This document shows, in pieces, positions 41,023 through 41,263 of a stretch of 41,409 nucleotides of DNA. The translations under genes and the position numbers were made by a program. The stretch is taken from the NCBI RefSeq assembly GCF_003334815.1, contig NZ_QOWO01000033.1; one strand, 5' to 3'. Each line of letters begins with the position of its first letter. The first letter of the stretch is position 1. This stretch comes from Escherichia coli (GTDB taxonomy: Bacteria > Pseudomonadota > Gammaproteobacteria > Enterobacterales > Enterobacteriaceae). The notes beneath the pieces were generated by a model that was not told the origin of the DNA, ran no database searches, and was given only the letters and a program-made list of their open reading frames with translations.

Positions 41023-41263
41023 TATAATCCCTTGTGACGTAAAAACTGCAAAACAAAAGTCCTACGCAGGAATTATTTACGTTTTACGAGAACCCTTCAA
41101 TATGAATTAAATTACGGCATTAAAAATAAGAAAAAAGCCTGACAAATGAAGCATTTTAAAAACAGAAACATTCATATTTAAAATGTTAAATTGAATTGAT
41201 ATTTTAAATATGAATAATTTATTCGTTCTGACAGTACGAATAAGATATGCCGTCAACAAATGC

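Follow-up and report, generated by a model that had tools for sequence, protein, structure and literature searches.

A single-copy inverted repeat in AT-rich DNA upstream of the H-NS-repressed chiA promoter of Escherichia coli

Analysis of the chiA-tufA intergenic region in a 41,409-bp window of E. coli DNA (the window being the whole stretch that was analysed) reveals a perfect inverted repeat that lies directly 5' of the chiA promoter, consists almost purely of A and T, is single-copy and belongs to the E. coli/Shigella lineage. We give an even chance to the interpretation that this repeat is part of an AT-rich, H-NS/StpA-coated region upstream of chiA, acting through its base composition if it acts at all, with no dedicated reader; its symmetry is probably incidental.

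The sequence-only reading had described an exact 14-bp inverted repeat, TTCATATTTAAAAT (41171-41184) and its reverse complement ATTTTAAATATGAA (41201-41214), with a 16-bp spacer, about 150 to 190 bp from the chiA start. All of this is verified in the sequence, and the perfect arms in fact reach one base further outward, to 15 bp, with the spacer between them unchanged (Table 1). The measured distance is 149-192 bp 5' of the ATG at 41022. If two mismatches are tolerated, the arms grow to 20 nt (41170-41189 and 41196-41215) around a 6-nt loop. The arm centres are 31 bp apart, or approximately three helical turns.

Table 1. Features of the chiA-tufA intergenic region, in window positions
Feature	Position	Strand	Sequence	Remarks
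Promoter-proximal arm	41170-41184		ATTCATATTTAAAAT	-105 to -119 from chiA start site
Promoter-distal arm	41201-41215		ATTTTAAATATGAAT	-136 to -150 from chiA start site
Repeat spacer	41185-41200		GTTAAATTGAATTGAT	16 bp; 41185 is G in the K-12-type window
chiA start codon	41020-41022	-
chiA transcription start site	41065	-		43 nt 5' of ATG; published NC_000913 position 3467918
chiA core promoter	41072-41100	-		from promoter scan
tufA intrinsic terminator	41263-41290	-		12-pair stem with 6 G-C pairs, then T-run
tufA end	41314-41316	-

That a match of this length exceeds the palindromes usually seen in AT-rich DNA also holds up locally. In dinucleotide-preserving shuffles of the 294-bp intergenic sequence (n=2000, inverted-repeat spacer of at most 40), a perfect repeat of at least 14 bp arose in 1/2000 (P ~0.0005), and shuffles of the 240-bp AT-rich part produced none. 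The repeat is moreover the longest perfect inverted repeat within the window; the next longest have arms of 14, 13 and 12 bp with loops of 2-4 nt, and resemble the hairpins of terminators. Most other strains have a 17-bp form (see below), which is rarer by chance than a 14-15-mer, and with a local chance probability of ~0.0005 or less for a repeat of 15-17 bp, selection or some specific mechanism that generated it could be at work. By our estimate, the AT-rich fraction of a whole E. coli genome should contain approximately 0.1-1 such 14-15-mer repeat; the repeat thus stands out in its neighbourhood without being overwhelming at the scale of the genome. We note a second, smaller inverted repeat at 41219-41243, between the main repeat and the tufA terminator, with 8-bp perfect arms (TTATTCGT, 41219-41226; ACGAATAA, 41236-41243) and a 9-bp spacer, which is kept in the aligned E. 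coli haplotypes.

Along the minus strand, which carries all genes of this locus, the order is tufA, terminator, repeat and chiA promoter, with the repeat inside an intergenic spacer of ~291-294 bp. The tufA terminator stands between the tufA transcript and the repeat. A promoter scan places the chiA -35 (TTGAAG, 41100-41095) and -10 (AATAAT, 41077-41072) elements 17 bp apart. The chiA gene ends at 3469853 in NC_000913.3, where the chiA and tufA coordinates were checked in the record. The offset between versions.2 and.3 of NC_000913, which we take to be 1,978 bp, places the published start site at window position 41065; this is the only offset that both puts the start site in the spacer and agrees with the difference in genome length. 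The promoter scan is consistent with this placement, since the -10 element ends 7 nt upstream of 41065. The start site itself had been mapped earlier and was confirmed by 5' RACE at NC_000913 position 3467918 (Salscheider et al., PMC3950696), and SELEX with the sigma-S holoenzyme gave a peak 12 bp away, at 3467930 (PMC5493296). The repeat thus spans -105 to -150, upstream of the -35 element and downstream of the tufA terminator; consequently, it lies outside the chiA mRNA and is not transcribed from chiAp.

On the opposite strand, a promoter-like site (TTGAAT-16-AATAAT, 41191-41218) is directed at the tufA terminator, which by eye also presents a hairpin and T-run on the plus strand. Together, these elements (41191-41295) could yield a putative antisense RNA of ~65-70 nt, for which sRNA families gave sub-threshold matches only (best 20.9 bits). 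An Rfam search of 40800-41409 at permissive E-values returned sub-threshold matches only, mostly over the tufA terminator, the best scoring 20.9 bits against a threshold of 50.

The base composition of the repeat is extreme. Its 46 bp contain 10.9% GC and six TpA steps, ranking 36th lowest in GC among the 41,364 46-bp windows of the stretch, and the 100 bp around it contain 17-21% GC. A 100-bp GC content of 21% or less is found in only two regions of the 41-kb window, namely around the repeat and in the gspA-gspC spacer (~26550-26650). Within the window, AT content peaks in the latter, a divergent spacer whose GC falls to 15% over 100 bp. This spacer drives the type II secretion system for ChiA export; its promoter region has been published as bound by SlyA and is, like that of chiA, silenced by H-NS (PMC5797941). 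The chiA gene is silent in the wild type, and its promoter has been reported as H-NS/StpA repressed (PMC3950696, PMC5797941); in an hns stpA mutant, chiA expression is as high as with constitutive BglJ (PMC3950696).

The chiA upstream DNA has the composition expected of an H-NS-silenced upstream region, being far AT-richer than the genome and flanking a promoter. Upstream AT-rich DNA usually aids H-NS silencing, as at bgl and proU. In common with the bgl upstream element, proU, leuO and gspA-gspC, the chiA promoter is repressed by H-NS/StpA and, in further likeness to these H-NS-repressed promoters, is activated by an anti-silencer, BglJ-RcsB; the repeat resembles their silencing regions in being extremely AT-rich, in lying ~50-200 bp 5' of the start and in belonging to an accessory gene segment. 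Unlike those regions, however, it contains no good match to the H-NS nucleation motif: a scan with the high-affinity 10-mer tCGATAAATT (TCGATAAATT; Lang et al. 2007) found no match with up to 2 mismatches in the repeat or across 41023-41262, the nearest matches lying at 40854 and 40882, within chiA. Neither is a long perfect dyad a defining or usual property of H-NS silencing regions, and the helical phasing of AA/TT (A/T-tract periodicity) in the region is not significant (P ~0.10). Of the roles raised in the sequence-only reading, a part in the silencing architecture of the chiA promoter is the best fit, given an 11%-GC element at -105 to -150 of an H-NS/StpA-repressed promoter, but it lacks the H-NS 10-mer.

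No second occurrence of the repeat was found in the collections that we searched. The repeat region occupies a median of one place per genome in 3053 genomes, and the two-arm pattern, with any spacer of 8-24 nt, was found on 8 metagenome contigs, all from the chiA-tufA locus and 97.9-100% identical. A phage collection gave no match to the repeat, and a plasmid collection gave none of relevance, its only strong match being a mislabelled E. coli chromosome and two others being weak, partial and AT-rich. Within the window, arm-like sequences elsewhere are weak and AT-rich only, with 2-3 mismatches (26840 in gspC; 38242 near bfd). The multiple copies of a dispersed repeat of the REP, ERIC or MITE-like type were thus not found. 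As ~42% of E. coli genomes are without the chiA segment, the end of a mobile element or an insertion scar was also considered, and is ruled out by tufA-chiA-bfd-bfr synteny in related genera together with the single copy.

Within the species, the chiA-proximal part of the spacer is matched in 3139 of 5426 complete E. coli genomes, the others matching the tufA end only. The 66-bp repeat region is held by 3053 genomes, 1453 of them identical to the window, 1590 with 1-3 differences and 10 with more. We aligned the locus from UTI89, C10, U12A, BCE-1, PEC395, two strains with a 799-aa ChiA, S. dysenteriae, an E. coli-like MAG and the 8 metagenome contigs; L022, whose contig begins inside the repeat and appears error-rich, was of no use. 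Both 15-bp arms are kept in all of these. In most other haplotypes, including 7 of the 8 metagenome copies, position 41185 is A, which extends the perfect arms to 17 bp (ATTCATATTTAAAATAT and ATATTTTAAATATGAAT) and reduces the spacer to 12 bp. As most haplotypes carry A, the K-12-type G at this position is probably a derived change that shortened the stem from 17 to 15 bp. The 1453 genomes that match the window exactly necessarily carry this G, which is thus present in about half of chiA-positive genomes (1453/3053).

Conservation of both arms in E. coli and Shigella, proposed in the sequence-only reading as a check, is found in the sense that the arms are unchanged in nearly all sampled loci, but with a divergence of only 2-4% this proves little. 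Among all sampled E. coli and Shigella-type haplotypes a single exception was seen, the gull isolate 64A:C, which carries an uncompensated A to G change at 41182 in the proximal arm. With ~14 variable sites in 240 bp, ~1.75 would be expected in the 30 arm positions; none was found (P ~0.15). At this divergence and this P value, the invariance of the arms is no evidence of constraint, while being compatible with weak constraint. In strain NT1N34 (L008), an IS1 element sits in the repeat spacer, at the equivalent of ~41193, and no match to the promoter-proximal half is reported, which suggests an IS1-associated deletion toward chiA. Given the stem-shortening G, the uncompensated arm change and the IS1 in the spacer, the symmetry of the repeat is not protected.

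Beyond the species, a ChiA scan of the genome collection returned 2 loci, and a protein search with contig look-ups yielded five more, diverged and syntenic. Syntenic tufA-chiA-bfd-bfr(-gspO) loci whose ChiA is 67-76% identical (L011, L016, L018, L020 and L023) contain no comparable repeat, the best candidates there being short palindromes or imperfect pairs; their upstream regions are unalignable beyond the tufA terminator, and only L016 shows recognisable -35/-10 elements there. This makes the element a feature of the E. coli/Shigella lineage alone. The gene order tufA-chiA-bfd-bfr-prepilin peptidase is common to these other Enterobacteriaceae, and L016, L018 and L020 continue into gspM/L, while L011 is without annotation downstream. 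Given that the tufA-chiA-bfd-bfr order is kept in these genera, chiA appears to have occupied this position for a long time, in linkage with a secretion system, rather than to have been inserted recently in E. coli.

Taken at the level of mechanism, the preferred reading, that of an H-NS/StpA-coated upstream region, would run as follows. (I) The AT-rich DNA with its TpA steps would offer H-NS/StpA a tract to coat from the upstream side of the promoter. (II) This coating would keep the promoter at 41065 silent until a BglJ-RcsB-type anti-silencer, or the loss of H-NS, relieves silencing. (III) The dyad symmetry would be read by no dedicated protein; it would probably stem from a local mutational event, for example template switching between imperfect repeats, and would persist because the locus is young and little diverged. 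We infer both the occupancy of the repeat itself by H-NS and the neutral origin of its symmetry.

An operator reading starts from the regulation of chiA. In strains deleted for leuO, a lacZ fusion carrying the chiA intergenic fragment is switched on by BglJ-RcsB, although motif searches for a BglJ-RcsB box at chiA gave no significant match (PMC3950696). The repeat could be the operator of this or another specific regulator or anti-silencer, bound by two dimers three helical turns apart, with its arms as redundant copies of one site whose occupation displaces H-NS and switches chiA on. With perfect arms of 15 bp, or of 17 bp in most strains, the repeat has the dyad symmetry of a palindromic operator. 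The distal arm and the T beside it read TATTCATA on the chiA strand, a 7/8 match to the published BglJ-RcsB core wwTTCykA (PMC3950696); the proximal arm has the same ATTCATA core in inverted orientation, at a distance resembling that of the mapped BglJ-RcsB site at bgl, ~100 bp upstream. A third copy of the outer 9-mer of the arms, ATTCATATT, overlaps the chiA -35 element on the minus strand (41099-41107), in the orientation of the distal arm and 108 bp from it, but it is not significant in shuffles (P ~0.09). Despite these likenesses, mutation of a predicted motif ~150 bp upstream of the chiA start left BglJ-RcsB activation intact (data not shown there; PMC3950696), and as the distal arm ends at -150 and matches the core at 7/8, the mutated motif probably lay in this arm. 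No RcsAB box with up to 3 mismatches is present in the repeat, and with lengths of 15-17 bp and centres 31 bp apart, the arms are much longer and more widely spaced than in usual operators. Comparison by eye with the consensus sequences of ArgR, FNR, IHF, NagC and XerCD/dif sites gave no fit in spacing either. There is no second occurrence to suggest a regulon, and the conservation in orthologous promoters expected of an operator is absent from the diverged syntenic loci. The option of a regulator binding site, as put forward in the sequence-only reading, thus gained no positive support, and we regard an operator as distinctly unlikely. In a narrower version, the arms would be redundant inverted copies of the element used by BglJ-RcsB, or by another anti-silencer, to lift H-NS repression from chiA; that would account for both the lack of effect of mutating one motif and the lack of a canonical box, and is, in our judgment, still less probable. 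The converse proposal regards the repeat as inert: having arisen by chance or as a by-product of mutation, it would leave chiA expression untouched, H-NS effects included. This proposal accords with the number of such repeats expected per genome, with the lineage specificity, with the tolerance of stem and spacer changes and with the non-significant arm invariance; the low local chance probability speaks against it, as does the position of the AT-rich tract directly beside an H-NS-silenced promoter, where by analogy such DNA would usually contribute to silencing. We consider complete inertness unlikely, while giving it real weight.

The remaining readings concern structure. Folded as DNA, each strand gives a long hairpin of -9.4 to -11.7 kcal/mol (z ~-3.4 to -5.0), such that a cruciform is physically possible in this model, and extrusion of a cruciform or of transient hairpins under negative supercoiling might provide a supercoil-sensitive switch or a target for structure-binding nucleoid proteins. 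As in the ColE1 and pUC palindromes, the arms are perfect over more than 13 bp, A/T-rich and predicted to form stable hairpins on both strands, and the almost pure A/T content would ease melting; the K-12 form can also be drawn with its imperfect 20-nt arms and 6-nt loop. However, the perfect arms are held apart by 16 nt here and by 12 nt in most strains, compared with 3-6 nt in the classic ColE1 and pUC cases, and spacers of 12-16 nt strongly disfavour extrusion. This geometry and the weak A/T-only stem argue against efficient extrusion, which H-NS coating would hinder further, and no compensatory variation is seen, the sole arm variant being uncompensated; a cruciform therefore appears very improbable. 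As RNA, the minus strand would form a hairpin followed by GUUUCUGUUUUU, which is part of the predicted minimum-energy fold of the tufA read-through transcript, and from its place between the tufA terminator and the chiA promoter it could act as a back-up terminator or insulator that guards chiA against the very strong str operon. Intrinsic terminators do share this layout of a hairpin and then a U-rich stretch in the transcribed strand, placed just past a gene. Unlike them, the stem is almost wholly A-U, with one G-C pair per 15, the loop is long (12-16 nt), and the whole stands behind a complete and strong tufA terminator. A terminator scan did not find the repeat as an intrinsic terminator, and the combination of G+C-rich stem, short loop and U-tract, or else membership of an RNA family, which marks a terminator or structured RNA, was not found for it; the hairpin is also missing in related loci that face the same read-through. 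Since the stem is essentially without G-C pairs and a strong terminator already lies upstream, a back-up terminator role is unlikely, and we assign the insulator reading as a whole hardly any probability.

The chiA gene downstream of the repeat varies in its own right. In the window, it carries an in-frame TAG at 40261-40263 (minus strand; W254*), reading KNA*WV against KNAWWV in the other repeats, so that this strain's chiA is probably a pseudogene. Across 37500-41409, the window departs from a K-12-type genome at one base only, position 40262 within the TAG (T here, C there), and the 96 bp around the TAG are matched exactly in only 3 of 3120 genomes. Many E. coli encode a ChiA of 799 aa against 897 aa, which, from the length and a split BLAST alignment, probably is without one chitin-binding repeat. 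In S. dysenteriae, chiA is called as 701 aa plus 95 aa and looks like a disrupted gene. In these strains (L012-L015, the 799-aa E. coli allele and S. dysenteriae), a type II secretion gene cluster follows directly after bfr. In approximately 42% of complete E. coli genomes, the match to the spacer is confined to its tufA end. Two of these that were inspected (O157:H7 FRIK2069 and 28Eco12) are without chiA and its promoter region (window ~38215-41261), bfd following directly after tufA. The bfd-bfr DNA of FRIK2069 is only ~77% identical to that of the window, which suggests that the presence and absence of chiA represent two old haplotypes rather than a recent deletion.

In sum, on present evidence the finding mainly adds a sequence feature to a promoter region whose silencing by H-NS was already established, and it alters little in the understanding of chiA or of H-NS silencing. 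Were the symmetry of the repeat functional, it would pinpoint the missing cis element through which the cryptic chitinase gene chiA is activated, and would offer a simple model for the opening of H-NS-coated promoters by anti-silencers.
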